The notes beneath the pieces are model-generated. The model worked only from the letters and a program-made list of their open reading frames with translations. It was not told where the DNA came from and made no database searches. The translations under genes and the position numbers were made by a program. Positions 5,408-29,801 of a stretch of 29,801 nucleotides of DNA are shown piece by piece (position 1 is the stretch's first letter; every line of letters starts with the position of its first letter). Source of the stretch: an uncultured Dehalococcoidales bacterium (GTDB lineage: Bacteria > Chloroflexota > Dehalococcoidia > GIF9 > AB-539-J10); NCBI GenBank assembly GCA_964592065.1, contig CAZQDF010000001.1:1-29801 (forward strand), written 5' to 3'.

Positions 5408-7255
5408 TCATGGCTGCAGCAGTTCCTGAAGAACAGCTAGTACATCTTGCCGAGGCACGCTGCTGTGAATCACCGCCTTGCCCATATCTTCTAAAAGCAC
5501 CCAACGGATTGCGCCTCCTCTTACCTTTTTATCCAGTTCCATAGCTCTCTCCACATCGGTTAAGTCTATTTTGGAGAAGCTTACAGGTAAATCAAATCTT
5601 TGTAATAGGGATTGTTGCTGTTTAACTCTGGCTGGAGATAAAAGACCTAACCTCTGACTAAGCTTACCTGCCCCCACCATGCCAATAGCTACTGCTTCAC
5701 CATGAAGGAATTGCCTATATTGAGTGGCTGCTTCCAATCCATGGGCAATAGTATGCCCATAGTTCAAAATAATACGTTTCCCCTTCTCCCTCTCATCTTC
5801 ACTAACAACCTGAGCCTTGAAAGCAGCGCTGCGAGCAATAGCCTGAGTGAGCATATCCGGCTCTAATTCCATTAGCTTAGCAGCGTTGATTTTCAAAAAC
5901 TTAAAGAACCCTTCATCTAGTATGAGACCATACTTAATCACTTCAGCCCATCCTGAGGTCAGCTCCCGCTGAGACAAAGTGGTAAGAGTCTGACAGTCAA
6001 CCAAGACAAAGTTAGGCTGATAGAAGGCGCCGATAAGATTTTTCCCCTGAGGGTGGTTAACGCCTACCTTGCCTCCAATGCTGGCATCAACCATAGCTAC
6101 CAAGCTGGTTGGTAGTTGTATCCAGGGCATGCCTCGCAAGAAAGTGGCAGCTACAAAGCCAGCTAAATCACCCACCATGCCACCACCCAAAGCGATGAGG
6201 ATGTCATCTCGCTCCGCTCGGTGTTCTACGAGAAAGTCATAGATTCTGTTAGCGAAGTCAATGTTTTTCGTTGTCTCGCCCGGCGGCACAACAAAGGAGT
6301 TCACTACGAAGCCGGCATGTTCCACTATTTCTCTAACCTTGCGGCCGTAGAGGGAAAATACAATTTCATCGCTAATTACATTGACCGTACCACATAAGCC
6401 CCTCTCTTTTATCTTTTCCCCTAGCTTGTCCAGTAGCCCCCAGCCCACAAAAATAGGATAACTTTGAGTGGTAGTTTTCACCTCGCAGGCAATGTCCTTA
6501 TCAGTATCATTGCAACCCTTCCCTTTGTCATTGCGGTGAGCCGAAGTCCTGAGTGTAGCGAAGGGGGAGCGTGGCAATCTCGGCGTTAAGTATTCCTGCG
6601 ATTGCTTCGGCATTTCATGTCTTGCGATGGCGCCCGAATTGTCATTGCGAGCCCTTCGCCTCTTGCCATTCTGAGGGAGAGAAGCGACCGAAGAATCTCG
6701 CTCAGGGTAAACTCCGCGAAGCAATCCCCAAGCTCTTGCTACCTCCTCAGCTACCTCACTAATGCTTAAGTCATCGGTGTGAACCGTCCAGTCAACATTG
6801 GCATAGTAAGGCTGCCTAGAGGCTTTAAGTTGCTTGATGTGCTCTAGGGGATTGTCCTGAGCTAGAAGAGGGCGAATTTCTGTTTCCGAGCCGTAAGCAG
6901 CATCCTGAAATAAGCGTTGATAGATTGTTTCTGGCTTGGCTTCAAGACAAATGATTAAACCACTTTGGGCAAGCAGTTCATAGTTTTGATTATCAACAAT
7001 AGCACCGCCTCCGATAGCTATGACCGTTTGTTTTTGCTGGCAAGCTTTCTTAATCATGTGCCGCTCCAGCTCCCTGAATTTTGCCTCCCCCTCCTGCTGA
7101 AAAATTTCACTAATTGGCTTGCCAGCTTGTTTAACTATCTCTTCGTCAGTATCAATGAAATCCCAGTTTAACCTCCGGGCTACCTCTCTGCCTACAAAAG
7201 ATTTGCCAGTAGCAGAAAAACCTGCCAGGATGATATTAGCTATTCGTTTGCTCAT
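5408..7255 (-). CDS. aroKB: Fused shikimate kinase / 3-dehydroquinate synthase (AroK-AroB) with a repeat-derived linker
   Basis: N-terminal GFSATGKS P-loop, DTD, GGG and RPLL. C-terminal GGGMVGDLAGF, PTSLVAMVDASIGGK, LNYGHT and HGEAVAIG. Confidence 0.93.
   Translation of the reverse strand: MSKRIANIILAGFSATGKSFVGREVARRLNWDFIDTDEEIVKQAGKPISEIFQQEGEAKFRELERHMIKKACQQKQTVIAIGGGAIVDNQNYELLAQSGLIICLEAKPETIYQRLFQDAAYGSETEIRPLLAQDNPLEHIKQLKASRQPYYANVDWTVHTDDLSISEVAEEVARAWGLLRGVYPERDSSVASLPQNGKRRRARNDNSGAIARHEMPKQSQEYLTPRLPRSPFATLRTSAHRNDKGKGCNDTDKDIACEVKTTTQSYPIFVGWGLLDKLGEKIKERGLCGTVNVISDEIVFSLYGRKVREIVEHAGFVVNSFVVPPGETTKNIDFANRIYDFLVEHRAERDDILIALGGGMVGDLAGFVAATFLRGMPWIQLPTSLVAMVDASIGGKVGVNHPQGKNLIGAFYQPNFVLVDCQTLTTLSQRELTSGWAEVIKYGLILDEGFFKFLKINAAKLMELEPDMLTQAIARSAAFKAQVVSEDEREKGKRIILNYGHTIAHGLEAATQYRQFLHGEAVAIGMVGAGKLSQRLGLLSPARVKQQQSLLQRFDLPVSFSKIDLTDVERAMELDKKVRGGAIRWVLLEDMGKAVIHSSVPRQDVLAVLQELLQP
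6526..6726. repeat. Composite of three nested palindromic elements (+,-,+) in frame in the aroK-aroB linker
   Basis: 6526-6581 TGTCATTGCG...GTGGCAATCTC with inner CCTGAGTGTAGCGAAGG; 6600-6632 minus CGCCATCGCAAGACATGAAATGCCGAAGCAATC; 6640-6726 TGTCATTGCGAG...CGAAGCAATC with inner CATTCTGAG...CGAAGAATCTC. Confidence 0.85.
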
Positions 7256-9596: not shown

Positions 9597-10826
9597 CTAA
9601 TCCTTACATATTGACAATTGATAATTATGATAGTTTGCTGAGGTCTCCTTTAGATTATCGCCAGCGAATTTCTCTAACATGGCATCGGCTAAGACAATAG
9701 CTAACATTGCCTCGCCAATCACCCCAGCAGCGGGGACAACGCAAACATCGCTGCGCTCATAATGGGCTTGGGCTGCTTCGCCACTACGCAAATCTATGGA
9801 GGGCAAGGGCTTAGCTAGAGTAGCAATAGGTTTGACCGCGGCCCTGATTACAATGGGTTCTCCATTGCTTATGCCGCCCTCGATGCCGCCAGCGCGGTTA
9901 GTGGCGTGGCGCCAGGGGAAAGGTTGCTTTGAGGGATTGGGGCCAATAATATCCTGGGCTTGTGAACCTTTGAGCTTGGCCAAACTAAATCCATCACCTA
10001 CTTCTACTCCTTTAATAGCGTTGATGCTCATTATTGCCTGAGCAATTCTGCCGTCGAGGCGGTCATCCCAGCTAACATGGCTGCCCAAACCTATAGGCAC
10101 TCCATTGGCGATTACCTCAAAGATGCCACCTAGTGTATCTCCACTAGCTTTAGCTTCATCAATAGCTGTTATCATCTCCTTTCCCATCCCGGCATCAGCA
10201 CAGCGAACTGGAGAAGCTTCTACCTGCTGCCAATTTAGAGAGATTGCTTCGCGGAGACTGTCCTGAGTGGGATTCTTCAGCCGATTCTCTCCCTCAGAAG
10301 GATAAGAGGCGAAGGACTGGCAGCTAACAGGCCCGATTGATATAGTATGGCTGTGAATAGCAATGCCAAACTCCTTAAGAAATCTCTTGGCTACAGCTCC
10401 AGCGGCTACCCTGGCTGCTGTTTCCCTGGCGCTGGCTCTTTCTATTATCGGTCTAATGTCTTTGAGTCCATATTTAGTTACACCAGCTAGGTCGGCGTGT
10501 CCCGGGCGTGGACGAGTTATGGGTTCAGTTTCCTTCTCTAGCAAGGTGACACTCATCTCCTCCAGCCAGTTTTGCCAGTCCCGGTTGGGGATAAAGAGAG
10601 CAATAGGGCTGCCTATAGTAAGTCCATAGCGGACTCCGGAAACGATTTCAGCTTTGTCTTGTTCTATCTTCATGCGAGAGCCGCGGCCATAGCCTCCCTG
10701 GCGACGCTTTAACTCTCTATTGATGTGTTCCGCTTCCAAGGGGAGGCCAGCTACCATCCCTTCGGCTACGGCTATTAACCCCTTCCCGTGGGATTCTCCG
10801 GCGGTTAAAAAGCGAAAATGTCCCAT
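9597..10826 (-). CDS. aroC: Chorismate synthase with an internal repeat-derived insertion
   Basis: TAGESHG, RRQGGYGRG, PRPGHAD, ERASARETAAR, NRAGGIEGGISNG, RSDVCVVPAA. Confidence 0.97.
   Translation of the reverse strand: MGHFRFLTAGESHGKGLIAVAEGMVAGLPLEAEHINRELKRRQGGYGRGSRMKIEQDKAEIVSGVRYGLTIGSPIALFIPNRDWQNWLEEMSVTLLEKETEPITRPRPGHADLAGVTKYGLKDIRPIIERASARETAARVAAGAVAKRFLKEFGIAIHSHTISIGPVSCQSFASYPSEGENRLKNPTQDSLREAISLNWQQVEASPVRCADAGMGKEMITAIDEAKASGDTLGGIFEVIANGVPIGLGSHVSWDDRLDGRIAQAIMSINAIKGVEVGDGFSLAKLKGSQAQDIIGPNPSKQPFPWRHATNRAGGIEGGISNGEPIVIRAAVKPIATLAKPLPSIDLRSGEAAQAHYERSDVCVVPAAGVIGEAMLAIVLADAMLEKFAGDNLKETSANYHNYQLSICKD
10242..10315 (-). repeat. Palindromic element in frame inside aroC
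   Basis: The minus strand matches 6653-6726 (plus strand) ungapped at 62/74 nt by hand count. It encodes roughly SFASYPSEGENRLKNPTQDSLREAI. Confidence 0.9.
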
Positions 10827-11764
10827 TAGCTTTGATATAAATATTGAGGCTGAGGATAAGTGGGGCTTAATGTCTCTAGCAAAACTATATCCTGTCCGCT
10901 TAACCCTAGCAATTTCATCTGGATGACGCTGACCAACTCTCTCAGGTCCAGCCCTAGAATCGATTCTAACAGAGATGGACGCTTAAGCTTATAATATTCC
11001 ACTTTAGGAGTTGCAATGTTGGCTAGTTGTGCTGCCAAATCTATGGCTGTGTTCAGCCCTCCTAGTTCATCAACCAAGCCTAATTCCTTGGCTTGATTGC
11101 CAGTGTACAGTTGCCCTGTGGCTAAGCTCCTGACTTGCTCCTTGCTTAGTCTCCTGCCTTCTGCCACAACCTCGATGAATTGCTTATAGTATTCATCGGT
11201 CATTTGCTGCATGATTTCCTTCTCGTCAAGAGTTAGTTCTCTTAATCCTGAATACATATCTTTATATTTGCCACCTTTGAAGGTTTGCATTTCAATCCCC
11301 AGCTTCTCGTAAAGTCCCTCAACGTTAGGTATTTGAGAAATAACACCGATGCTCCCAGTCAATGTGCCGGGAAGGGCTACAATCTTATCTGCCTTGGCTG
11401 AGATGTAATAGCCTCCGGAGGCAGCCATGGTTTCCATACTTACCACGATGGGCTTTGTCTGCGTAACCTTTTCCATTTCCTCTAAAATTTCTTGGCAAGG
11501 TGCCACTGCTCCGCCAGGGCTCTCTATGCGAAGGACAATTGCCTTTACTGCCATGTCCTTCTCTGCTCTATCCAGTTGCTCCTTTACCAGTTCTGGTGTA
11601 ATGGTAGAGCCAAAAAATATATAAGTGCCCTCGGTTGCGATAGTCCCGCTAAGAGGAATCACAGCAACTTTATTCCCAGCTTCTATTGGCATACAACTGG
11701 TGGGAATTACTATCGCAACTAGCAATAATATGGCTAAACCAATAACTACTATTTTCCCCTTCAT
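10826..11764 (-). CDS. sppA: Signal peptide peptidase SppA, short (36K) type
   Basis: LRIESPGG, AASGGYYIS (catalytic Ser), TGSIGV, GKYKD, GLVDELG; N-terminal hydrophobic anchor. Overlaps aroE (ATGA) and aroC (TAATG). Confidence 0.92.
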   Translation of the reverse strand: MKGKIVVIGLAILLLVAIVIPTSCMPIEAGNKVAVIPLSGTIATEGTYIFFGSTITPELVKEQLDRAEKDMAVKAIVLRIESPGGAVAPCQEILEEMEKVTQTKPIVVSMETMAASGGYYISAKADKIVALPGTLTGSIGVISQIPNVEGLYEKLGIEMQTFKGGKYKDMYSGLRELTLDEKEIMQQMTDEYYKQFIEVVAEGRRLSKEQVRSLATGQLYTGNQAKELGLVDELGGLNTAIDLAAQLANIATPKVEYYKLKRPSLLESILGLDLRELVSVIQMKLLGLSGQDIVLLETLSPTYPQPQYLYQS

Positions 11765-12651
11765 CCTCCTCCTTTTAGCAATATTTGTTCGGCCTTGTAA
11801 AACATTATGTCAACTGGAGGCTTTTTCCCCGTCCATAACTCAAAAGAGGCAACGCCCTGATATACTAGCATAGCTAGACCCCTAAGTATATTAGCTCCTA
11901 CATTTCGTGCTAACTGTAACAAAGGCGTTTCCCAAGGGTTATATACTAAATCGCAGACTAAGGCATTTTGGGGAATCAGTTCAGCACTTAGAGGTGACTG
12001 CCCTGCCTGAGAACTGTATTTCATTCCGATAGTAGTGCAGTTGACTATAAGATGGCAGTGTTCTAAAGTCTCGCCTGAGTATAAACTCTGCCAGGGCAAA
12101 GCGGTGACCTTACTTTTTAATTCTTCTGGGCTTGCTGAAGAGTCTTTAACATAGCGATTTATGCTATCTGCCAATGTCGCGGCTCTCTCTAAAGTCCGAT
12201 TGATAATAAGAAGCGAGCTCGCTTTCTCCTTCACCAAAGCAAAGCTAACTGCCTTGGCTACCCCGCCAGCACCCAAGATTACCGCCCGCTTACCTTCTGG
12301 CTCAAAGCGCCCATCTTTATATAACGCCTCAATAAAGCCATAGCTGTCAGTGTTGAAACCCAGGAGTCTATTATCCCTTTTGACTATAGTGTTGACTGCC
12401 CCAATCGAACTTGCCAGGTCATCAACTTCGTCTAATAAAGGCAAGACTGTTTCTTTATATGGAACGGTGACGTTGGCTCCAAGGCTTTGAGGTTTTCTTA
12501 AGTTATCTACTGCACCTTGAAGCTTTTCCGGGCTTGTTTCCCAAGCTTCATAATGAATGTCAAGGTGGTAGTAATCCAAGGCGGCTTGCTGGAAATAAGG
12601 GGAGATGGAATGCTTGATGGGGTAACCAATGAGACCAATGAACTTTGGCAT
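11761..12651 (-). CDS. aroE: Shikimate dehydrogenase
   Basis: HSISP, GANVTVPYKE, GAVNT, NTDSYG, GAGG, DLVYNP, MLVYQG. Confidence 0.96.
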   Translation of the reverse strand: MPKFIGLIGYPIKHSISPYFQQAALDYYHLDIHYEAWETSPEKLQGAVDNLRKPQSLGANVTVPYKETVLPLLDEVDDLASSIGAVNTIVKRDNRLLGFNTDSYGFIEALYKDGRFEPEGKRAVILGAGGVAKAVSFALVKEKASSLLIINRTLERAATLADSINRYVKDSSASPEELKSKVTALPWQSLYSGETLEHCHLIVNCTTIGMKYSSQAGQSPLSAELIPQNALVCDLVYNPWETPLLQLARNVGANILRGLAMLVYQGVASFELWTGKKPPVDIMFYKAEQILLKGGG

Positions 12652-16335: not shown

Positions 16336-17193
16336 TTACTTTCCCGGTGCATTACCGAAGTATACCTTGGTGTGAGGCCAGGGTATCTCTATGCCTTCAG
16401 CATCAAAGGCCCTTTTCAGGCGAAGTCTCAACTCACCCATCACCGCCCATTGCTCGATGGGTTTGACATCACCCAAGATCTTGACCTCTATCCCGGAGTC
16501 GCCCAGGTCATTCACCCTCAGTACCTGGGGCGCAGTTTTAATCACCTTGCGCCATTGCTCATCCGCAGCCAGCTCCTGGCCTACACGGTTTATTACACTT
16601 ATGGCGTGGTCAAGGTCGGTACCATAGGACACTGAGACATTAAGATTAACCCTGGCGAAGTGTCTGGTATAGTTGCTGGCTATCCTAATCTCGCCATTGG
16701 GGACATGGTGGACTATCCCGTCCAAGTCACGGAGCACCGTCTTCCTTAGATGAACCTCCTCTACCAGCCCAGTGACGTCGGCTATTCTGGCTACATCTCC
16801 AACCCTGTACTGGTTTTCTGCGATTATGAAGATGCCAGCAATAACATCCCTTATCAGGTACTGAGCGCCGAAGCCGATGGCTATTCCAGCAATGCCGAAA
16901 CCAGCCAGGATTGGGGCAACAGGGATATTTACTTCAGATAGGACCATCAGTATGACAACTATGGCGATAAATATCCGCCCTACCCCGGTCAAGACACCTA
17001 TAAGCGTCTCTCTCCTTTTCTTAATTCCCTCCTTGCTTTCGCCCCTGATTGTGACCATGGTACGGCCTATTAGGAGGGGGAGAAACTTTCTCAAAGCGAA
17101 CCATAGCACAATCCCCACCACCAATATGATGAGAATGCGAATGCCATGTTCAATCAGCCAGCTAACTACAGTGGCCCAACTCAATTGGAACAT
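16336..17193 (-). CDS. mscS: Small-conductance mechanosensitive channel family protein
   Basis: Three TM helices, AGFGIAGIAIGFGAQ, YRVGD, DGIVHHVPNG, AFDAEGIEIP. The ATG at 17193 has SD GGAGG. Confidence 0.93.
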   Translation of the reverse strand: MFQLSWATVVSWLIEHGIRILIILVVGIVLWFALRKFLPLLIGRTMVTIRGESKEGIKKRRETLIGVLTGVGRIFIAIVVILMVLSEVNIPVAPILAGFGIAGIAIGFGAQYLIRDVIAGIFIIAENQYRVGDVARIADVTGLVEEVHLRKTVLRDLDGIVHHVPNGEIRIASNYTRHFARVNLNVSVSYGTDLDHAISVINRVGQELAADEQWRKVIKTAPQVLRVNDLGDSGIEVKILGDVKPIEQWAVMGELRLRLKRAFDAEGIEIPWPHTKVYFGNAPGK

Positions 17194-17269
17194 ATGCAAC
17201 CTCCATGCTCCGCACTTTCTGCAGAGGCTAAACTGACATTATTTTAAACATTTATTCAGTGCGCTGTAT

Positions 17270-20778: not shown

Positions 20779-23292
20779 CTAGTGTTTGATCTTCAAGGTC
20801 ACTATCTCAAAGGGTTTCACTTTCATTGTTAGCCTATTGCGATTTGGCTTCAGCTCATATTCCTCTCGCTCCAGCAAATCGGAAACTGTTGCCCTTTCGA
20901 TATTACGGAATAGCTCGATTTCAGCCGTGGTTTCCTCTCCTTTAGTTTCAAAGAACCTTAATATTACCTCATCGCTGCCCTCAGCCTTCTTAAGGGCTGA
21001 CAGGATAAGGTTATTCGGTGAAATCTTGAGGAAGGAAAATTCTGGGGGCAAATTGCCTTTAGAATTAGTTTGAGTGCAAAGAGGTTGGTGGTGATATTCT
21101 TGGCCATGCTTATATGCTTCAGATTGCCTCCAATCACCCTCATGATGCTGCAAGGCATATTCAAAAGTGTAATCTCTATTGAGCTCCAAAGCATCTGGAG
21201 TTGGGATTAGAGGCCCAGCGTCCCCATCGGTAGAAAGAGCACCAACACTCCGCAAAAGTGTTAAGTAAACCTGACTACCCCTTATCTCAGTTGCCGGGAT
21301 ACCCTTGTTCATAAAAGTTATTCCTCTCGTTCCATCGCCATAACAGAACCAGGATAGAAAATTGGGAATTCCGGCTGGTGTCCCCGTCCTTTCCAAGGAT
21401 GCAAATAACTCTGTAGGCTCAGGAACAACACCAAATTGGGTCTCACGAAAATAAACCATTCTCTCCTTAAATGTATCGAATTTAACCCTAAGCCTTATAT
21501 TTGGATATCTACTATTGACTTTGGTTGTAAACTCGACCCTGGGAAGGTCCCGATAAATAGTAACCTCTTTTATAACATCTAAAACCCTGTGTTTATAAAA
21601 CTTAGTTTCAAACTTCTCGAACATTCGATAAGGCCATCTGAGACAATAATATCCCTCTTTTAGGATTATTTTCGATTTTAGCGGACCATTTTCTACCTTG
21701 AAGCTATCGGGCTTAAAAGTTCCATAATAAATCCCCTCTCCACTCTCATTTTTTATCAGTTCAAAGAACATGTGCCGATGATAATACAAGTCGCCAACCT
21801 CGTTCTCAATATTCAGTTCATTCCCTTTAACTAAAAGCTTTCCTTTTTTATCGAAAACTTCAATTATTCCTGTTTCAGGGTCAGTTTTTAATTTAAAGAA
21901 GGGATTTTCTAGCGCATTTTCCTTGCTCTTGACAGCCCTTTCAGGTTCTTTACTTCGTTCGATGACCTTATAAATCTTATAGCCTATCGGTGGAAGGTCA
22001 ACAAAAAAGCCAAGCCTTGCATGATTGATTTTCCCCTCTCTATCCTTTTTCAGCCCTAAAACTTGATTTTCTACCTCCTCCGCACTATATCTGAGCCCAG
22101 GTTCCTTCTCCCAGCCTTCAAGCTCCAAACCAACCTCACACCAGTTGTGCATTCCCCAGGGGAGAGGGTTGAAAATTACAACTGCTTTGCCTTGAGTATC
22201 TATTTTGCTGGCAATGAATTTCAGCGAATCATTCAGAATTTTAGAAAGATGCTCTTCAAGGAAGGAAAATATTTCTCTAACCTCGTCATAAATTTCATCT
22301 ATCCCGCATCCGGTGATGATATCGTGGAAGGCAACGAAAAGCATCTTCTCCCAGCACTCATTTAGCTCGGTACTGGGATATTCCTTACCTAATAGCCAGG
22401 CCAGAGTAGCAAACCGCTCAACTGTACTGAGCAATGCTTCACATTTCCTCGCTCCAAGGACCACCCACATTCGGCTTGAGCATACCTGAGGGAAAACTTC
22501 GACCAAATCCTTGTCATACAATTCACCCTCGTGGGGTTTAAATTTCCCCTCTTCGCTCTCCACAGCTTGGAAGAATTTGGATGGAGTGGAGAGCTTCATC
22601 TGGGAACCACCTCGATGATTCTCATTCCATTTCATTACCGCTTCAATAACTTCCTCTTGAGGAGGCACTGATCCACTTCCTGAAGGCATGAGAATGTGGA
22701 AAGTAGTGGCATATTTGTTAAGCGCTATATAGCTTTCCTGTAACCTATCGAGGTAGAATCCAGCCCTGTACCCTAATGGCATCCAATGGGCAAGGATAGT
22801 AGTCCCATCAAGCCCCCTCCAAATAAATTCGCTCTGCATCTCCTTCGCTCCTCGCCTAAAAGCAACCCATTTGTACCCCGATTTCTTATAAATTTGAGGG
22901 AGCTGCGCATTCATGCCAAAGCTATCGGCACACCAAGCTACAGGGACATCTACCCCAAACTTCTCCTTACAGTACTTCTTGCCAAACAAGATCTCCCTTA
23001 CCAACACCTCCCCAGTGGGAAGCATGGTATCTGGCATCAAATACTGGCCATCAACTATTTCAAGTTTTCCCTTCTGGATCATTTCCTTTATTTCTGACCA
23101 AAGCTTAGGATTCCTTTCCTCCAACACTTTCAAGGGGAAGATTTGCTCCCAGGAGAATCTATATTCCTCGTACTTTCTCATCAATTCAACGGCCTGTTGT
23201 AGAATACCTTGGTTTATTTCAAGATAATCCTCTTTGGTGAATGCCCAAGCTACATCATAATGAGAATGAGGAACAAGGTATATCGTCTGCAT
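20779..23292 (-). CDS. GH38 alpha-mannosidase-like protein, apparently lacking the canonical acid/base Asp
   Basis: Zn ligands PHSHYDVAW and FHDIITG; nucleophile motif WCADSFG; C-terminal LSALKKAE...LRFFE. ATG at 23292, 1 nt after the mpgP stop, with SD GGAGGT. Confidence 0.9.
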   Translation of the reverse strand: MQTIYLVPHSHYDVAWAFTKEDYLEINQGILQQAVELMRKYEEYRFSWEQIFPLKVLEERNPKLWSEIKEMIQKGKLEIVDGQYLMPDTMLPTGEVLVREILFGKKYCKEKFGVDVPVAWCADSFGMNAQLPQIYKKSGYKWVAFRRGAKEMQSEFIWRGLDGTTILAHWMPLGYRAGFYLDRLQESYIALNKYATTFHILMPSGSGSVPPQEEVIEAVMKWNENHRGGSQMKLSTPSKFFQAVESEEGKFKPHEGELYDKDLVEVFPQVCSSRMWVVLGARKCEALLSTVERFATLAWLLGKEYPSTELNECWEKMLFVAFHDIITGCGIDEIYDEVREIFSFLEEHLSKILNDSLKFIASKIDTQGKAVVIFNPLPWGMHNWCEVGLELEGWEKEPGLRYSAEEVENQVLGLKKDREGKINHARLGFFVDLPPIGYKIYKVIERSKEPERAVKSKENALENPFFKLKTDPETGIIEVFDKKGKLLVKGNELNIENEVGDLYYHRHMFFELIKNESGEGIYYGTFKPDSFKVENGPLKSKIILKEGYYCLRWPYRMFEKFETKFYKHRVLDVIKEVTIYRDLPRVEFTTKVNSRYPNIRLRVKFDTFKERMVYFRETQFGVVPEPTELFASLERTGTPAGIPNFLSWFCYGDGTRGITFMNKGIPATEIRGSQVYLTLLRSVGALSTDGDAGPLIPTPDALELNRDYTFEYALQHHEGDWRQSEAYKHGQEYHHQPLCTQTNSKGNLPPEFSFLKISPNNLILSALKKAEGSDEVILRFFETKGEETTAEIELFRNIERATVSDLLEREEYELKPNRNRLTMKVKPFEIVTLKIKH

Positions 23293-23293
23293 C

Positions 23294-24100
23294 TTAACCT
23301 CCAAATATTTCTTCGATTACTCTGCTCCAGCCTTCAGGGCCAATCCCCTGAACTTTGCGCAAGTGAGGCAGATTTATGTTCTCCCAAGTGTGATTCCTTT
23401 TTTGCACTAAGATAGGTATATCCACTGCGGAAAGCAGAGGTAAATCGTTTAAGCTGTCGCCAAGTCCAATAGTCTCTATTTTATCCCACATCCTATGGTA
23501 TAGATTGCTTACAATGGCTACAGCTTTACCTTTATCGTTATCTCCCATGATGTCATAAAACCGCCCACCATGGGTCCAATTGAGGCCAGCATCTTTAACC
23601 TTTTCCAAGGCCTTGCTCACCTCTTCACCTGAGAGGTCGAGCTTTACTGTTTCATCATATTCTCTTTGCTTAGCTAATTTAGCAGACTCCATATCCAAGC
23701 CAGTCTCTCTGGCTATCTCTTCAACACTCATATCGCCAAAGCCTCTAAAGTGAAAATTGCCTTCCTTTTTAACCTTATCCAGCAATTTTCTGATCTCCTC
23801 ATAAGGAGTGCCCAGCTCAATAACTAATAGATTACCTATAGTAACTTTATGATACTCGAAAGGGAAGGAAAAGTAACCTTGTGGTATAAAGATAGCGCCT
23901 CCATTCTCCACTATAAAGGGATGAAACACTTTCATTTTGTGCCGATATAACTCTTGCTCTGCTCTGGTCTTTGCCGAGCAGAATATCAGGGGTATGCCAT
24001 TCTGCTGAAGTCGTTTAATCCCAATAAGCGATTTCTCATAGGAATAAGTTACGCTGTCAAGAAGAGTGCCATCTAAGTCAGTAAATACTATTTGTTTCAT
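23294..24100 (-). CDS. mpgP: Mannosyl-3-phosphoglycerate phosphatase (HAD IIB)
   Basis: FTDLDGTLLD, CSAKT, PFIVENG, AKQREYDE, GGRFY, DKGKA, GLGDSLND. Confidence 0.9.
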   Translation of the reverse strand: MKQIVFTDLDGTLLDSVTYSYEKSLIGIKRLQQNGIPLIFCSAKTRAEQELYRHKMKVFHPFIVENGGAIFIPQGYFSFPFEYHKVTIGNLLVIELGTPYEEIRKLLDKVKKEGNFHFRGFGDMSVEEIARETGLDMESAKLAKQREYDETVKLDLSGEEVSKALEKVKDAGLNWTHGGRFYDIMGDNDKGKAVAIVSNLYHRMWDKIETIGLGDSLNDLPLLSAVDIPILVQKRNHTWENINLPHLRKVQGIGPEGWSRVIEEIFGG

Positions 24101-24285
24101 TGCAACTAAAGAGGATATGGGTGGATTATTCCTTTATTCCCCAGCAAATTTTCTTTTTCCAGTTTGACGAACTTTATCTTGCGTCACTCATATGTGTCAA
24201 ACTTCCTTGGACTTTGACAATTACGGCAGTAAGGACAGTTTGCCGCTGGCAAACAGATTTGATATTATCCTTTTGAGATAAGAAG

Positions 24286-25473
24286 ATGTTTATTGAGAGT
24301 CCGAGGTATACAGAGAGGTTTGGTTCAGTCAGAATGAATCACGTGCAGAAGGTGGTGGCTTTAGACTCAGGGGTAAAAAGCGAGTTGCCTTCCCATGGTG
24401 CCATGGGGATAATAAAAATAGATGAGGAGACGATCAAGCATTTTGAGGACAGAATGGCGATTGTCATCCCAGTCAAAGAAGAGAAGCTCAAGCTCTTTGA
24501 AGGAGTGGTTAGTGGCGTGCCACATGACTGCCTGGTAATAGTTGTTTCGAATAGCCAAATAGAAAAGGTTGACAGATTCAGGATGGAAGGTGATGCTCTA
24601 GCCCAGCTTTGTCGCTTTACCTCTCGCCAGGCTTTGATCGCTCATCAAAAGGATCCGGCTATTGCCGAAGCAGCAATGGAAGCTGGCTATAATGACCTAT
24701 TGGGTGAAGATGGGCTAGTGCGTAATGGTAAGAGCGAAGCTATGGTAATAGGATTGCTTATGGCCAAGGCGTCAGGAAAAGAGTATGTTGGTTTCATTGA
24801 CGCTGATAATTATTTCCCTGGTGCGGTGCTGGAGTATGTGAGGAATTATGCTACTGGTTTTAGCCTAGCTCAATCTCCTTATAGCATGGTAAGAATATTA
24901 TGGCATTATAAGCCCAAGATCTCAGGGGGGGTGTACTTTAAGAAATGGGGAAGGGTATCAGAGATTACCAATAAATACTTGAATAATCTGATATCTTCTA
25001 AAACAGGGTTTGAAACTGATGTGGTTAAAACGGGCAACGCTGGTGAGCATGCTATGAGTATGAAGCTGGCAGAAATTGTACCTTATGCTTCGGGATACGC
25101 TGTGGAACCTCAAGAGTTAGTATCTATATTTGAAAGTTTTGGTGGCATTTTGCCCTCCAGAGAGCATAAGGTGATGGAGCAAGGCGTAGATATATTCCAA
25201 ATTGAGACCAGAAATCCTCATCTACACGAAGAAAAGGGAGAGGAGCACCTTGATGAGATGTTGTTATCTGCAATGAGCACCATTTACCACTCATCTCTTT
25301 GCGATGAAGAATTAAAACAGGCAACTCTGACTGAATTAGTTAATCGAGGAATTCTCAAAGAGGGTGAGGAGCCCCCACCTATTCATATTAATGCTCCGCT
25401 AAAAGAAGTCGATACTAAGAAGTTTATGAGCGCTATACACGACGACTTCGATAGATACCAAGTGTTACATTAA
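24286..25473 (+). CDS. mpgS: Mannosyl-3-phosphoglycerate synthase (GT55)
   Basis: ERFGSVR...QKVVALDSG, AIVIPVK.E, GKSEAM, GFIDADNYFPG, WGRVSE, NAGEHAM, ETRNPHLHE. Confidence 0.93.
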   Translation: MFIESPRYTERFGSVRMNHVQKVVALDSGVKSELPSHGAMGIIKIDEETIKHFEDRMAIVIPVKEEKLKLFEGVVSGVPHDCLVIVVSNSQIEKVDRFRMEGDALAQLCRFTSRQALIAHQKDPAIAEAAMEAGYNDLLGEDGLVRNGKSEAMVIGLLMAKASGKEYVGFIDADNYFPGAVLEYVRNYATGFSLAQSPYSMVRILWHYKPKISGGVYFKKWGRVSEITNKYLNNLISSKTGFETDVVKTGNAGEHAMSMKLAEIVPYASGYAVEPQELVSIFESFGGILPSREHKVMEQGVDIFQIETRNPHLHEEKGEEHLDEMLLSAMSTIYHSSLCDEELKQATLTELVNRGILKEGEEPPPIHINAPLKEVDTKKFMSAIHDDFDRYQVLH

Positions 25474-25575
25474 ACCCAGTGGCCTGTCACGGATTTTTCC
25501 ATAGCAGATTCCACTGAATGACGGGGGTGCTAAGTAAAAGCTTGGAATGTAGAAAATAGAGGATTTTGGGCGCTT

Positions 25576-27756
25576 CTAAGCTTCCGCCATTTCTTTCAGC
25601 AGAAGGTTCACCTCGCTTTGGGAACCAAGATTGAATTTGGCTGCCGAGGCACTGAATCCGACCTTAATTGACCATGCCGTGGTGGGCAGGACTTTGAAAA
25701 TATCCTCATCGGTCCAATCATCACCTATTGCTAATATGAAGTCCCAACCATCTCTCGAAATCCATGGCAAGGCTGCTCGCCCCTTATTTATGCCAGCATT
25801 TTTTACTTCAACTACCTTACTTCCCTCCAGGACCTGAAGGTTGAGATTACCAGTAAGGTTTAGAAGATCATTTACTAGCTCTCTTGCTCGTAGTTCACCT
25901 AGCCGTGGGTCAGCTTTCCTATAATGCCAAGCAAGAGAAAAATCTTTCTCTTCAATGAAGGAGCCTGGAGTCCTATCCACGTATAGCGCACAGATTGGGC
26001 GCATTTCCTCCTTCCAGTCGCTCTTCAACGCTTCTAACATCTCCCACTCCTTGCCTCTTTCCTTAATCCAGGCACCATGTTCAGCTACCAATGCCATATT
26101 TAGATTGCCAAACCATTTCCCTAGAGCATCTTTGTCGCGTCCACTTATGAGCACCACCTCATTTCTAGTGTCCTCAGCGAGCCCTTTAAGCAATTCCAGA
26201 AGCTCGCTGGTTGGTATTGCTTTCTTTGGCTTTTCTGAAAATGGAATAAGCGTGCCATCATAATCCAAGAACAGTAGTCTCTGCTCACCCTTTTGGAAAT
26301 CGCTCATTAACTTCTTTTTCGCCTCATGGTTTAATGTTTTTGTTTCCATCTCTTCCTGAACTTCTCTGGCGCAAAGTAATTTATTCACAAACTCGTCTGC
26401 CCATCGCTTTACATTATAATGCTCAAGGCGTTCCTGCATTATCCTAATACGCCCTACCTGCTCTTCTTCTGGCATAGTTAAAGCTTGTTCTAACGCCTGG
26501 ACAATTTCCTCTTCGTTATTTACATTTATTGTGACTGCCTCTCCTAGTTCCTTCGCTGCCCCAGCTGTCTCACTAAGCACTAAAACCCCTTTGCCTTCTG
26601 TCTTAGTTGCTATGTATTCTTTAGCTATAAGGTTCATTCCATCTCTAATGGGGGTAACCAAGGCAACGTCTGCCATGCTATACATAGCAACAAGAGAATG
26701 AGAAGGTAAAGAGCGATATGAGTACCAAATGGGTGTCCAGCCAATGGATCCATACCTTCCATTGATTGCCCCTACAAGTTCATCTATCTGTTTTTTCAGC
26801 AGAGCATACTGGCCCACTCTTGTACGAGAAGGAACTACGGTTAATATTAGAACTACTTTCCCTCTATACCGTGGCTTTCTTTCCAGAAAGAGGTTAAAAG
26901 CTTCCAATCGCTGAGGAATACCTTTAGTATAATCGAGGCGGTCTATTGACAGGATTATCTTACAGTCTCCCAGTCTCTTGCGAAATTTGCTTATCTGTGT
27001 CCGCACTTTTCGACTCTGTGCGGTGCTAGAGAATTGCTCATAATCTATCCCCATGGGGAATTCATCCGACTTAATTACGCGACTAGCGGTGGTGATTTGC
27101 CCCATAACCGCCTCATAGCCCAACAAGCGATGCACACTGTCAAGAAAGTGCCGTGTATAATCATAGGTATGAAAGCCTACTAGGTCTGCTCCTAAGAGTC
27201 CATCCAAAATTTCCTTACGCCATGGGAGCAAGCGGAATATTTCAAAAGATGGGAAGGGAATATGAAGAAAAAAACCTACTGCTGCCTTTGGTAGCCTCTC
27301 CCTTACAAGCTTTGGGAGTAGCATTAAGTGGTAATCGTGTATCCAAATGATATCACTCTCTTCTGCTACTTCAATAACGGCATCAGAAAAAACTTGGTTA
27401 ACCCGCTCATAGGTTTGCCATAAATCTTTGTTATACACTGCATACTGGGTGAAATAATGAAAAAGGGGCCAGATAGTTTTATTGCAAAATCCATGGTAGT
27501 AGTCTTCAACATCGTGTTCCGAAAAAAAAACAGGGTAGCAACTTTCCGACAGTAATCTTGCTTCTATATCCTTTTCCTCTCCCGCTATCTTTTCCTGAGC
27601 AATTCCAGGCCATCCTATCCAGATGCTGTCACGTGATTTATAGAACGCCCCCAGGCCAGTCGCTAGACCTCCAACGCTAGGGTCAAATTGTAATTTCTTT
27701 TTTCTTTTCTGAATACTAATAGGCAACCGATTTGAAACGATTAGCAATCGAGGCAT
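25576..27756 (-). CDS. otsAB: Bifunctional trehalose-6-phosphate synthase/phosphatase (GT20 + HAD)
   Basis: VSNRLP, HDYHLM, GFFLHIPFP, DRLDYTKG, DGMNLIAKEY; phosphatase FLDYDGTL and AIGDDWTDED. Confidence 0.95.
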   Translation of the reverse strand: MPRLLIVSNRLPISIQKRKKKLQFDPSVGGLATGLGAFYKSRDSIWIGWPGIAQEKIAGEEKDIEARLLSESCYPVFFSEHDVEDYYHGFCNKTIWPLFHYFTQYAVYNKDLWQTYERVNQVFSDAVIEVAEESDIIWIHDYHLMLLPKLVRERLPKAAVGFFLHIPFPSFEIFRLLPWRKEILDGLLGADLVGFHTYDYTRHFLDSVHRLLGYEAVMGQITTASRVIKSDEFPMGIDYEQFSSTAQSRKVRTQISKFRKRLGDCKIILSIDRLDYTKGIPQRLEAFNLFLERKPRYRGKVVLILTVVPSRTRVGQYALLKKQIDELVGAINGRYGSIGWTPIWYSYRSLPSHSLVAMYSMADVALVTPIRDGMNLIAKEYIATKTEGKGVLVLSETAGAAKELGEAVTINVNNEEEIVQALEQALTMPEEEQVGRIRIMQERLEHYNVKRWADEFVNKLLCAREVQEEMETKTLNHEAKKKLMSDFQKGEQRLLFLDYDGTLIPFSEKPKKAIPTSELLELLKGLAEDTRNEVVLISGRDKDALGKWFGNLNMALVAEHGAWIKERGKEWEMLEALKSDWKEEMRPICALYVDRTPGSFIEEKDFSLAWHYRKADPRLGELRARELVNDLLNLTGNLNLQVLEGSKVVEVKNAGINKGRAALPWISRDGWDFILAIGDDWTDEDIFKVLPTTAWSIKVGFSASAAKFNLGSQSEVNLLLKEMAEA

Positions 27757-27899
27757 GATGTTTTATACTCCTTAAATAAGATACCTCATTTAGCCAATTG
27801 TACTGCATACTTGTATTTCACTCAACTTAAAAAGCTTGTCCAGCTATACTCAATGCCCTTACTCGTCAGCTCCCAACAGTTGACGACCTCGCGCTTTGA

Positions 27900-27928
27900 T
27901 TGAGTTCGTTGGCCTCGAGTGCTATAAT
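27900..27928 (+). promoter_or_regulatory. sigma70-type promoter upstream of pgi/pmi
   Basis: TTGAGT-N17-TATAAT with extended -10 TG at 27920-27921. Confidence 0.55.
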
Positions 27929-28044
27929 GCTTGCAAGCAAGTTTTCTCATTTGCTTTTAAATAGATGGTTCACTTCGTTTTTCCCATTACAGAGGGTGCC
28001 TTCTGCATCTATCCGAAGTTGATAGATTTGCCCAAGGGGGAAAG

Positions 28045-29157
28045 TTGGTAGCACGTGGAAGGAAGAGGTCGGGGTTAGCAATAGTTGACCTAGACAATCT
28101 TCAAATTTACAGGCAGCTTGATACATCAGGGATGCTTAACCATCTGCACAAGTTCCCTGAGCAATGCAAGCGAGCCTGGGAAAAGGTTTTGAAGTTTGAT
28201 CTACCCAGAGAATATGCTCAAATAGATAAGGTTATTATCTTGGGAATGGGTGGCTCTGCTATTGGTGGAGAGATGGTACGCCGCCTTGCTTTGGCTGAAA
28301 GCGAAGCGCCTGTCTGGGTGCATCGAGATTATGGCTTGCCTCCATTTGTTGATGAGGACACTTTGGTTATCGCCTCAAGTTACTCTGGAAACACTGAGGA
28401 AACCCTTTACGCCTTCACGGAATCACTCAAAACCCCGGCTAAAAAGCTTGTTCTCACTACAGGCGGTAAGCTTAAGCATCTGGCTGAGAAAGAAGGCATC
28501 CCTATTTTTGCTATAGATTACCAAGCTCCTCCAAGAGCGGCTTTCTCTCATAGTTTCATCCCCTTGGTCGGCATTTTTCAAAAACTTAGTTTGCTCAGAG
28601 ACAAATCAGAGAACTTGCAAGAAGCATTACAGGTATTGAACAAGCTATCCGGGGAGCTCGTTGAAACCTCCCTTCTAGTTTCTAATTCGGCAAAGCAATT
28701 AGCTACTAAACTGTGGGGGCATGTAGCAATAATTTATGGGGCAGAGATACTCTCAGAGGTAGCTCAACGCTGGAAGGGCCAGCTTAACGAGACTGGCAAG
28801 ACATGGGCTTTCTTTGAACTTTTCCCTGAACTCAACCACAATGCAGTGGTAGGTTATGAATTTCCCTCCGAGGCAAAGGAAAGAATTTTTGTGGTTTTGT
28901 TGCGTTCCCGCTTGTTTCATCCCCGAAACCTGATTCGCTATGAGGCTACAGCTAAGCTACTGGCCAAAGCAGGAGTCACTTATGAATTCGTGGAAGCCTC
29001 AGGAGAAAGCGCCCTAGCCCAGGTGATAAGCCTAGTTTTTTGGGGAGATTATCTCAGCTTCTATCTAGCGATATTAAATAGGATTGACCCTACGCCGGTA
29101 GATTCTATAAACTTTGTTAAGGAATACCTTGCTCAGTTTATGGCTGTAAGTGGTTAA
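28045..29157 (+). CDS. Bifunctional phosphoglucose/phosphomannose isomerase (SIS fold); start uncertain, may be ~12 codons downstream
   Basis: GMGGSAIGG, SSYSGNTEET, PPRAA, WKGQLNE, PELNHN. Confidence 0.9.
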   Translation: MVARGRKRSGLAIVDLDNLQIYRQLDTSGMLNHLHKFPEQCKRAWEKVLKFDLPREYAQIDKVIILGMGGSAIGGEMVRRLALAESEAPVWVHRDYGLPPFVDEDTLVIASSYSGNTEETLYAFTESLKTPAKKLVLTTGGKLKHLAEKEGIPIFAIDYQAPPRAAFSHSFIPLVGIFQKLSLLRDKSENLQEALQVLNKLSGELVETSLLVSNSAKQLATKLWGHVAIIYGAEILSEVAQRWKGQLNETGKTWAFFELFPELNHNAVVGYEFPSEAKERIFVVLLRSRLFHPRNLIRYEATAKLLAKAGVTYEFVEASGESALAQVISLVFWGDYLSFYLAILNRIDPTPVDSINFVKEYLAQFMAVSG

Positions 29158-29248
29158 ACCCAAGCAAAATACTGGAGTCGGCTTCGCAAACTAGAGAGGT
29201 TGAACCACGAATAGGCCGTATCATGTGAAAGGTATGGCAGGACTGCTA

Positions 29249-29801
29249 ATGAAAGCATTGATCTTGTGTGGTGGCAAGGGAACAAGGCTCAGGCCTCTCA
29301 CACATACTACGGCAAAGCACCTCTTGCCTGTTGCTAACAAGCCAATCCTATTTTACATTTTGGAGTATATTAGAGCGGCTGACATTACCCATATCGGCAT
29401 CGTCATCTCTCCGGAGACAGGTAACCAGATAAAAGAAGCTGTGGGTGATGGTTCAAAATGGGGTGCTCAAGTCACCTATATTGTCCAATTAGAGCCGCTT
29501 GGTCTAGCCCATGCTGTAAAGGAGGCCCAGGGTTTCCTCAGCGATTCCCGTTTCCTCATGCTCCTAGGCGATAACCTTATTGAGGGTGGTGTCACGGAAT
29601 TTATCGGCCAGTTTAACACTTACGCCCCAGATGCTCTTATCCTTCTCAAAGAAGTGCCCGATCCTGAAGCTTTCGGGATAGCTGAGCTTAGCGAAAGGGG
29701 CGAAGTGATTCGTGTGGCCGAGAAACCCAAAGAGCCAAAAAGCAATCTTGCTCTAGCGGGGATATATCTTTTCACTCCTGAAATTCATAAGGCGATAGCC
29801 C
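29249..29801 (+). CDS. Sugar-1-phosphate nucleotidyltransferase (glucose-1-P thymidylyltransferase-like), 3' truncated; not in the ORF track
   Basis: [34 protein letters not shown]...PLGLAHA...LGDNL...[16 protein letters not shown], open to the window end. An in-frame alternative ATG is at 29234. Confidence 0.9.

Follow-up and report, generated by a model that had tools for sequence, protein, structure and literature searches.

An Asp-less GH38 clade of Bacteria and Archaea, recurrently linked to mannosylglycerate-synthesis genes

Introduction

Family GH38 is a textbook retaining family of glycoside hydrolases, in which the aspartate that acts as general acid/base is treated as invariant. Here, we describe a GH38-family gene that lies within a stretch of 29,801 nucleotides (contig CAZQDF010000001.1 of assembly GCA_964592065.1; hereafter ‘the window’, meaning the whole stretch that was analysed) from an uncultured Dehalococcoidales bacterium. 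A preliminary description of this DNA had proposed that the encoded protein keeps the zinc site and nucleophile of the family, but has a glycine (Gly207) where the acid/base Asp should be, and that it might represent a GH38 subtype operating in mannosylglycerate metabolism, either with catalysis assisted by the substrate's own glycerate carboxylate or as a phosphorylase or transglycosylase using an activated donor.

Results

The GH38 gene and its active site

The gene, and those parts of its product that are referred to below, are as follows; equivalent residues are given for SpGH38, the enzyme from Streptococcus pyogenes (2WYH/2WYI).

20779..23292, minus strand: GH38-family gene of the Asp-less ‘GSG’ clade, 837 amino acids counted from the ATG
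23254..23268, minus strand: H9-S-H11-Y-D13, with H11 and D13 as zinc ligands by alignment (SpGH38 H13/D15)
22924..22926, minus strand: D123, by alignment the nucleophile and third zinc ligand (SpGH38 D125), in WCADSFG, residues 120-126
22852..22857, minus strand: R146-R147; R147 is the conserved nucleophile-contacting Arg (SpGH38 R149), R146 is clade-specific
22765..22770, minus strand: Y175-R176 in the loop WMPLGYRAG; in MngB-like enzymes a conserved ‘GY’ Tyr lines up with Y175, whereas R176 is clade-specific
22669..22686, minus strand: loop P203-S-G-S-G207-S208, following strand 199-203; G207 is encoded at 22672-22674
22321..22326, minus strand: H323-D324 in FHD (322-324); H323 is the fourth zinc ligand, D324 belongs to the -1 subsite (SpGH38 H351/D352)
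21778..21786, minus strand: Y503-Y-H505 in GDLYYH; Y503 is probably the -1 subsite Tyr (SpGH38 Y574)
21625..21636, minus strand: W553-P-Y-R556, an insertion confined to the clade, in a low-confidence loop of the model
21568..21570, minus strand: K575, a clade-specific Lys (elsewhere Gln or Thr)
21184..21228, minus strand: loop S687...E703, aligning with the D763/W764 ‘+1 sphincter’ loop of SpGH38; its D689, D691, D700 and E703 are candidates for an acid/base that has moved

The protein has the complete four-domain architecture of the family, with Glyco_hydro_38N (PF01074, E 9e-61), Alpha-mann_mid (PF09261), Glyco_hydro_38C (PF07748) and 38C2 (PF17677) all scoring above their gathering thresholds. 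Since homologs begin at the same Met, translation does not start from the upstream TTG, at 23304. As the catalytic domain begins at residue 3, there is no space for a signal peptide, and the protein is therefore predicted to be located in the cytoplasm. An AlphaFold (AF2) model built from 46 homologs reached a mean per-residue confidence score (pLDDT) of 82 and a predicted template-modelling score (pTM) of 0.86, falling below a pLDDT of 50 at residues 553-565 and 683-701. When submitted to Foldseek, the model returned template-modelling (TM) scores of 0.83-0.85 against SpGH38 (2wyh) and its Enterococcus faecalis counterpart (5kbp), and of 0.70-0.77 against Ams1, Bl_Man38 and dGMII; model and search together confirm the overall GH38 fold only.

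In the crystal structure of SpGH38, H13, D15, D125 and H351 bind the zinc ion, D125 is the nucleophile and D232 the acid/base (PMC2815779). Nine residues of the window protein (H11, D13, W16, D123, F125, R147, H323, D324 and Y503), which align with H13, D15, W18, D125, F127, R149, H351, D352 and Y574 of that enzyme, are invariant across 46 diverse clade members. Among the close homologs that cover each site, H11, Y12 and D13 are present in 118/118 sequences and D123 in 120/120, and H323/D324 of the FHD motif are conserved in 121/121 (the query plus 120 close homologs). HSHYD (9-13), WCADSFG with D123, FHD (322-324) and G207 all occur at the residue numbers that the preliminary description had given for them. 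Judged by alignment, then, the protein possesses the four zinc ligands (His, Asp, Asp, His) and the catalytic nucleophile Asp of a GH38 enzyme, and with zinc site, D123 and the -1 mannose subsite intact, a covalent mannosyl-enzyme step is still plausible.

Gly207 occupies the column of the acid/base Asp

In GH38 enzymes the acid/base is an Asp in the loop that follows the fifth strand (dGMII D341, SpGH38 D232, SpAms1 D493; the position in SpAms1 is from PMC7609781). The window protein carries ATTFHILMPSGSGSVPPQEEV, which includes G207, and in the model this motif forms a loop between strand 199-203 and helix 215-225. Three independent alignments agree with the earlier suggestion, made by eye, that Gly207 replaces the Asp. 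A phmmer comparison with SpGH38 (2wyh) pairs HLLMMNGCDHQP with HILMPSGSGSVP, the Asp being chain residue 254, or D232 in native numbering; BLASTP sets G207 opposite the Asp of LLPNGHDQMP in MngB from Escherichia coli; and when 152 GH38 proteins are aligned with MAFFT, the G-S-G-S-V-P-P of the window protein stands opposite G-x-D-F-x-P-P in its nearest Asp-bearing relatives, the two being of equal length. The G207 column is occupied by Asp in SpGH38, in MngB and in almost every other GH38 protein of the alignment. For the Ams1/MAN2C1-like class (GDGGGGP) the register is off by one, such that D493 of SpAms1 falls opposite S206, and positions 206 and 207 are both non-acidic in the window protein. 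On these alignments the acid/base Asp is absent, with Gly207, or Ser206 in the Ams1 register, standing in its place.

The trivial explanation for such a loss, a sequencing error or a decaying pseudogene, has nothing to recommend it beyond the missing Asp itself. The reading frame is intact over 837 codons, the GSG motif recurs in more than 200 independent sequences and the codon for residue 207 turns over synonymously (below), which together refute this idea and leave it a vanishingly small likelihood.

An ancient clade that keeps its glycine

Nor is the glycine private to this sequence, a possibility that the preliminary description had named as damaging to its proposal. Among the query and 120 homologs at 58-96% identity, G205 and S206 are each present in 121/121 and G207 in 120/121. 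We assembled 77 loci from GTDB genomes in all, of which 76 span the motif, and (I/V/L)LMP[SCAF]GSG is found in 76/76, at identities down to 37%. The hosts of these 76 are Dehalococcoidia, one Ignavibacteria metagenome-assembled genome (MAG), one Calditrichales MAG and many archaea of the Nitrososphaerales. Codon 207 is GGC in 34 loci, GGT in 22, GGA in 12 and GGG in 8; all four Gly codons are thus in use, and in the 56/76 loci with GGY an Asp codon is a single transition away, a pattern that we read as purifying selection for glycine.

A search covering 1.84 billion cluster representatives provided further members. In a neighbour-joining tree, for which Ams1-type G-x-G-D-H loops were labelled separately from ‘GSG’, the Asp-less sequences (P0032, P0121, P0122, P0124-P0131, P0134, P0135, P0158 and P0165) form one clade with a bootstrap value of 99/100, whose sister, P0132, retains the Asp. 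One member, P0126, is atypical in having GIG for GSG and in lacking both R146 and R176. The Asp-less clade is ancient and spans Bacteria and Archaea. A tblastn search of plasmids hit canonical GH38 genes only, at identities no higher than about 25%.

Two or three Asp-less paralogs occur together in single MAGs (L025/L029/L047 in one MAG, and the pairs L039/L049, L052/L073, L054/L076 and L079/L082); in one such MAG the copies are 74%, 61% and 57% identical to the query. Members have thus diverged from one another inside single genomes, and the clade may act on more than one substrate.

One carboxylate lost, four basic residues gained

We compared 23 clade members with 129 other GH38 proteins, position by position. 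R146, immediately before R147, is found in 22/23 of the clade vs 0/129 of the others; R176, immediately after Y175, in 22/23 vs 2%; and K575 in 23/23 vs 3%. The W, P and Y of the WPYR insertion are present in 23/23 and R556 in 21/23, at columns that are gapped in nearly all of the 129. S206, M202, F18 and N27 are likewise clade-specific. The clade is thus one carboxylate poorer and four basic residues richer (R146, R176, R556 and K575) than the rest of the family. In sequence, two of the four adjoin residues that solved GH38 structures show in contact with the nucleophile.

The same comparison was searched for a new acidic residue common to the clade, and none that is universal was found among the 23 members. 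Several candidates for a clade-wide replacement were set aside. SpGH38 has Asp and Gln at the positions of E214 and Q212 in addition to its catalytic Asp, and E214 is absent in distant members; D689 is not universal in the clade; and D700 matches a P-x-P-[DE] motif that is also present in SpGH38 and MngB.

These residues bear upon a more conventional explanation, namely that the enzyme is a mannosylglycerate hydrolase of ordinary chemistry, whose acid/base has moved to E703, D689 or H505, with Gly207 simply making room for a charged aglycone. E703 is indeed clade-specific (22/23 vs 11%), H505, beside the -1 Tyr, is conserved throughout the clade, and D689 does not vary within Dehalococcoidia and Nitrososphaerales; in addition, the 683-703 loop aligns with the D763/W764 loop of SpGH38, situated on the other side of the +1 site some 6 Å from the acid/base. 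Set against this, D689 is missing in P0122, P0124, P0126, P0131 and P0135, H505 is also found in the sister P0132, which keeps its Asp, and the acidic residues E214 and D700 have acidic counterparts in SpGH38 and MngB, E214 moreover not being clade-universal. A relocated acid would also leave the gain of four basic residues unexplained, and we regard this explanation, the main alternative to the model set out below, as possible, if rather doubtful.

The GH38 gene lies beside mannosylglycerate-synthesis genes

The neighbouring features of the window are as follows.

23290..23305, minus strand: mpgP/GH38 junction, TTTGGAGGTTAAGATG
23294..24100, minus strand: mpgP, mannosyl-3-phosphoglycerate phosphatase (TIGR02461, 274 bits against a cutoff of 244)
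24286..25473, plus strand: mpgS, mannosyl-3-phosphoglycerate synthase, divergent from mpgP (PF09488, E 7e-154; TIGR02460, 542 bits against a cutoff of 351)
25576..27756, minus strand: bifunctional trehalose-6-phosphate synthase/phosphatase (TPS/TPP), a fusion (NF011071, 1046 bits)
28045..29157, plus strand: bifunctional phosphoglucose/phosphomannose isomerase (PMI)
29225..29801, plus strand: GlgC-like sugar-1-phosphate nucleotidyltransferase, truncated by the end of the window

At the junction, a Shine-Dalgarno GGAGG sits within the last codons of mpgP, and a single base separates the mpgP TAA from the GH38 ATG; mpgP and the GH38 gene therefore probably form one operon, and the two are likely to be translationally coupled. 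By annotation, the GH38 gene is part of an osmoadaptation island (16336-17199 and 23294-29801) that includes an MscS channel. A scan of the window for promoters and terminators gave no excess of sites over shuffled sequence, and no tRNA genes were found in it.

So tight a coupling to mpgP could be taken, along with the loss of a residue deemed essential for catalysis, to indicate an inactive, GH38-like binder of mannosides that senses or regulates osmolyte synthesis. The zinc ligands, nucleophile and tuning Arg/Tyr are invariant over about 60% divergence and two domains of life, which would be unexpected for a pure binder, and we consider this role quite improbable.

Elsewhere in the window, an open reading frame (ORF) of 615 amino acids at 5408-7255 fuses shikimate kinase (PF01202) to 3-dehydroquinate synthase (PF01761/PF24621), in the vicinity of genes for chorismate synthase (9597-10826) and shikimate dehydrogenase (11761-12651). 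A second HAD-IIB-like ORF, at 123-692, matches Hydrolase_3 over the C-terminal part alone (E 5e-5), and may encode a truncated or divergent phosphatase.

Gene context across the clade

MpgS or MpgP is encoded within 10 kb of the GH38 gene in about 16 of the 77 genome loci. MpgP adjoins GH38 in 11 loci, including that of the Ignavibacteria and those of two deep-branching members with differing gene order: mpgP is directly upstream in the window and in L006, L007, L011, L019, L032, L048, L070 (Ignavibacteria, 43% identity), L075 and L086 (46% identity), and the order is GH38-MpgP-MpgS in L087 (43% identity). Linkage to mpg genes across lineages is thus recurrent, but not universal. The two synthesis genes are separate and divergent in the window and in most other loci; one Chloroflexota locus (L055:4100-6151) has a fused, MgsD-like MpgS-MpgP of 683 amino acids, 1.2 kb from GH38.

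Other neighbours recur as well. A large Dehalococcoidia subgroup with the motif ‘PCGSGSM’ has a THEP1-like nucleoside triphosphatase (NTPase) upstream and, downstream, either S-adenosylhomocysteinase and MetK, an APH/AAA_33 fusion or a PfkB kinase. The THEP1-type NTPase (NF010248, 166 bits against a cutoff of 156) is on the same strand, 15-45 bp upstream of GH38, in 14 Dehalococcoidia loci (L001:7444-7974 and 13 others, e.g. L024, L026, L033-L036 and L038), and an APH-like/AAA_33 fusion (L024:3655-5205) or a PfkB sugar kinase (L034:4983-5891) is often encoded downstream. This pairing may reflect functional coupling or mere lineage synteny beside genes of the S-adenosylmethionine (SAM) cycle.

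In the deepest archaeal members (P0131, P0134 and P0135), a gene resembling 2-phosphoglycerate kinase (2PGK) overlaps the start of GH38. These genes score 160-200 bits against NF003259, below its cutoff of 343. Such a P-loop gene, of about 300 amino acids, was seen at L085:3679-4599, L088:1-897 and L090:6106-7038, the L085 and L088 copies being 48% identical; the product may be a glycerate or mannosylglycerate kinase that partners GH38.

In four loci, two bacterial and two from Nitrososphaerales, a carbon-nitrogen hydrolase gene (PF00795) converges on the 3' end of GH38 (L011:5539-6279, L055:2853-3602, L054:11181-11888 and L066:12854-13573), the spacing of the called ORFs being -3 to -17 nt, which suggests that the pair was transferred together between domains of life.

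In 14 loci a GlgC-like nucleotidyltransferase is encoded no more than 6 kb from GH38, and in L014, L016 and L068 it is immediately upstream; in L014 the order is TreT, nucleotidyltransferase, GH38. A full-length homolog of the copy in the window (from L008) scores 385, below the GlgC equivalog cutoff of 470, and the enzyme may serve the pathway as its mannose-1-phosphate guanylyltransferase. This neighbour raises the possibility that the GH38 enzyme does not degrade mannosylglycerate at all, and instead uses an activated donor (GDP-mannose or mannose-1-phosphate) or acts as a transglycosylase building a larger mannoside, for which a general acid would be unneeded. Engineered retaining glycosidases that lack their acid/base do still turn over activated donors, and apparent co-translation with a biosynthetic enzyme would be in keeping with a synthetic role. 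The nucleotidyltransferase is, however, equally well explained as supplying GDP-mannose to MpgS, there are no conserved acceptor-related or export genes nearby, and the kinase neighbours (2PGK-like, PfkB and APH/AAA_33) fit salvage of breakdown products better; a synthetic role seems improbable.

Discussion

Genes for mannosylglycerate synthesis are on record in lineages among the hosts, in that Dehalococcoidia have been reported to carry them (PMC4918011) and Nitrososphaerales to retain MPGS (PMC7554672). A Nitrosocosmicus genome paper notes an annotated ‘mannosylglycerate degradation’ pathway, the gene for which is not identified there; the Asp-less GH38 gene may be what lies behind that annotation. 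We know of no mannosylglycerate-degrading enzyme described for Dehalococcoidia or the ammonia-oxidising Nitrososphaerales.

Bringing these observations together, we tentatively favour, at slightly less than an even chance, a model in which the Asp-less protein is a Zn-dependent, cytoplasmic GH38 enzyme for the turnover of mannosylglycerate, phosphorylated or not, and an anionic ligand takes the place of the Asp. The substrate would be 2-O-alpha-mannosylglycerate or mannosyl-3-phosphoglycerate, made by the adjacent MpgS and MpgP. We suggest that the space vacated by the Asp, together with the new Arg/Lys residues, may form an anion pocket, and that the anion held there, whether the phosphate or carboxylate of a glycerate-based aglycone or inorganic phosphate, would perform the proton transfer normally done by the Asp. 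A phosphate, be it the substrate's own or inorganic, would be suited to donating the proton because its pKa is suitable. Hydrolysis would yield glycerate (or 3-phosphoglycerate) and mannose; phosphate as the acceptor would yield alpha-mannose-1-phosphate, and within this model we hold hydrolysis and phosphorolysis to be roughly equally likely. Co-transcription with mpgP would then create a synthesis-plus-degradation module that adjusts the level of the osmolyte.

Several points weigh against this anion-assisted model. About 60 of the 77 loci lack an mpg gene within 10 kb; many Dehalococcoidia copies adjoin the THEP1-like NTPase and SAM-cycle genes instead; and the Nitrosocosmicus copies are without informative neighbours. 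Carboxylates bound by Arg make poor general acids, a point against that variant of the model in which the anion is a carboxylate, and co-translation with a biosynthetic phosphatase would be futile unless the activity of the enzyme were regulated. MngB retains its Asp whilst acting on a mannosylglycerate derivative, so a glycerate aglycone does not by itself force the loss of Asp, and the simple notion that it does is weakened accordingly.

The comparison with E. coli MngB (EC 3.2.1.170) is instructive in other respects. It too is a cytoplasmic GH38 enzyme with the same four domains, which cleaves 2-O-(6-phospho-alpha-mannosyl)-D-glycerate, and its model, NF007331, is the only NCBIfam model that the window protein matches. 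Identity between the two is only 24%, and the match scores 297 bits, far below the equivalog cutoff of 1138. MngB has the acid/base Asp (GHDQ), and W and A where the clade has R146 and R176; its gene lies in a PTS (phosphotransferase system)/regulator operon, mngR-mngA-mngB, whereas the window has mpgS, mpgP, TPS/TPP and PMI. The proposal of a GH38 subtype in mannosylglycerate metabolism therefore holds as far as the subtype is concerned, since the clade is monophyletic and below the MngB cutoff, and draws support from the recurrent mpg link, but is qualified by the many members in which that link is lacking.

The best structural and PDB sequence matches to the window protein, SpGH38 and the E. 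faecalis enzyme (5KBP, 3LVT), are identical to it in the zinc site, the nucleophile and the residues of the -1 subsite. SpGH38 is an alpha-1,3-mannosidase acting on host N-glycans, and it differs in having D232 where Gly207 is found here and in its +1 loop, which is four residues shorter and made up of different residues. The nearest Asp-bearing lineage (P0132 and relatives) is 33-38% identical to the window protein, has a loop of equal length and, in P0132, shares H505, but keeps the Asp and lacks R146, R176, WPYR and K575. The P0132 gene follows those for a solute-binding protein and two permeases of an ABC sugar transporter, and this setting in a classical sugar-uptake operon fits a functional switch at the node where the Asp was lost.

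In one version of the anion-assisted model, which we single out although we think it rather unlikely, the enzyme would be the first glycoside phosphorylase of GH38, interconverting mannosylglycerate plus phosphate and alpha-mannose-1-phosphate plus glycerate. Phosphate, held by R146, R176, R556 and K575 in the space of the lost Asp, would serve first as general acid and then as acceptor of the mannosyl group from the enzyme. There is precedent for this in the retaining GH3 phosphorylases Nag3 and BglP, which have likewise lost a carboxylate acid/base and use anionic phosphate: a carboxylate beside the anomeric centre repels phosphate, and its replacement lets phosphate in (PMC8950772). The feature that characterises that class, the lack of an anionic carboxylate acid/base beside the anomeric centre (PMC8950772), is predicted for the window protein from Gly207. 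Nag3 and BglP differ from it in fold and family, in acting on beta-glycosides and in that their replacement is a His/Asp dyad, not Gly. A phosphomannomutase gene beside GH38 would have favoured phosphorolysis, and none was found among the annotated neighbours.

As regards gene arrangement, the closest parallel is with the GH13_18 phosphorylases, in which the gene for degrading a glycosyl-glycerate or -glycerol osmolyte also stands beside those for the synthase and phosphatase, as for the glucosylglycerate/glucosylglycerol phosphorylases of Synechococcus PCC 7002 (GPGS-GGAP-GPGP) and Marinobacter (ggp-ggpPS) (PMC10873239). They belong to an unrelated family and act on glucosides. The GH13_18 enzymes also keep a canonical Glu acid/base. 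The role proposed here is that of MgH, a mannosylglycerate hydrolase of family GH63 known from Thermus, Rubrobacter and Selaginella and, to our knowledge, the only enzyme described for non-phosphorylated mannosylglycerate; MgH is an inverting enzyme with an (alpha/alpha)6 fold, related to the window protein neither in sequence nor in fold.

Searches of the literature on GH38 and mannosylglycerate, GH38 and phosphorylases, and mannosylglycerate phosphorylase gave no description of this clade, nor of a GH38 phosphorylase or a GH38 clade lacking the acid/base. A cross-domain clade that has dispensed with the Asp under purifying selection, with the rest of its active site kept, points to chemistry undescribed for GH38, for which anion-assisted hydrolysis and phosphorolysis are the candidates. 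The automatic labels that such genes currently receive, ‘alpha-mannosidase’ or ‘mannosylglycerate hydrolase’, rest on weak similarity to MngB.

If our model is right, the Asp-less enzymes would fill the degradation gap in Dehalococcoidia and Nitrososphaerales, abundant subsurface and soil groups that carry the genes for mannosylglycerate synthesis. Should the enzyme prove to be a phosphorylase, it would provide these groups with energy-conserving recycling of the osmolyte, and would offer a one-step synthesis of mannosylglycerate from mannose-1-phosphate and glycerate that is of biotechnological value.

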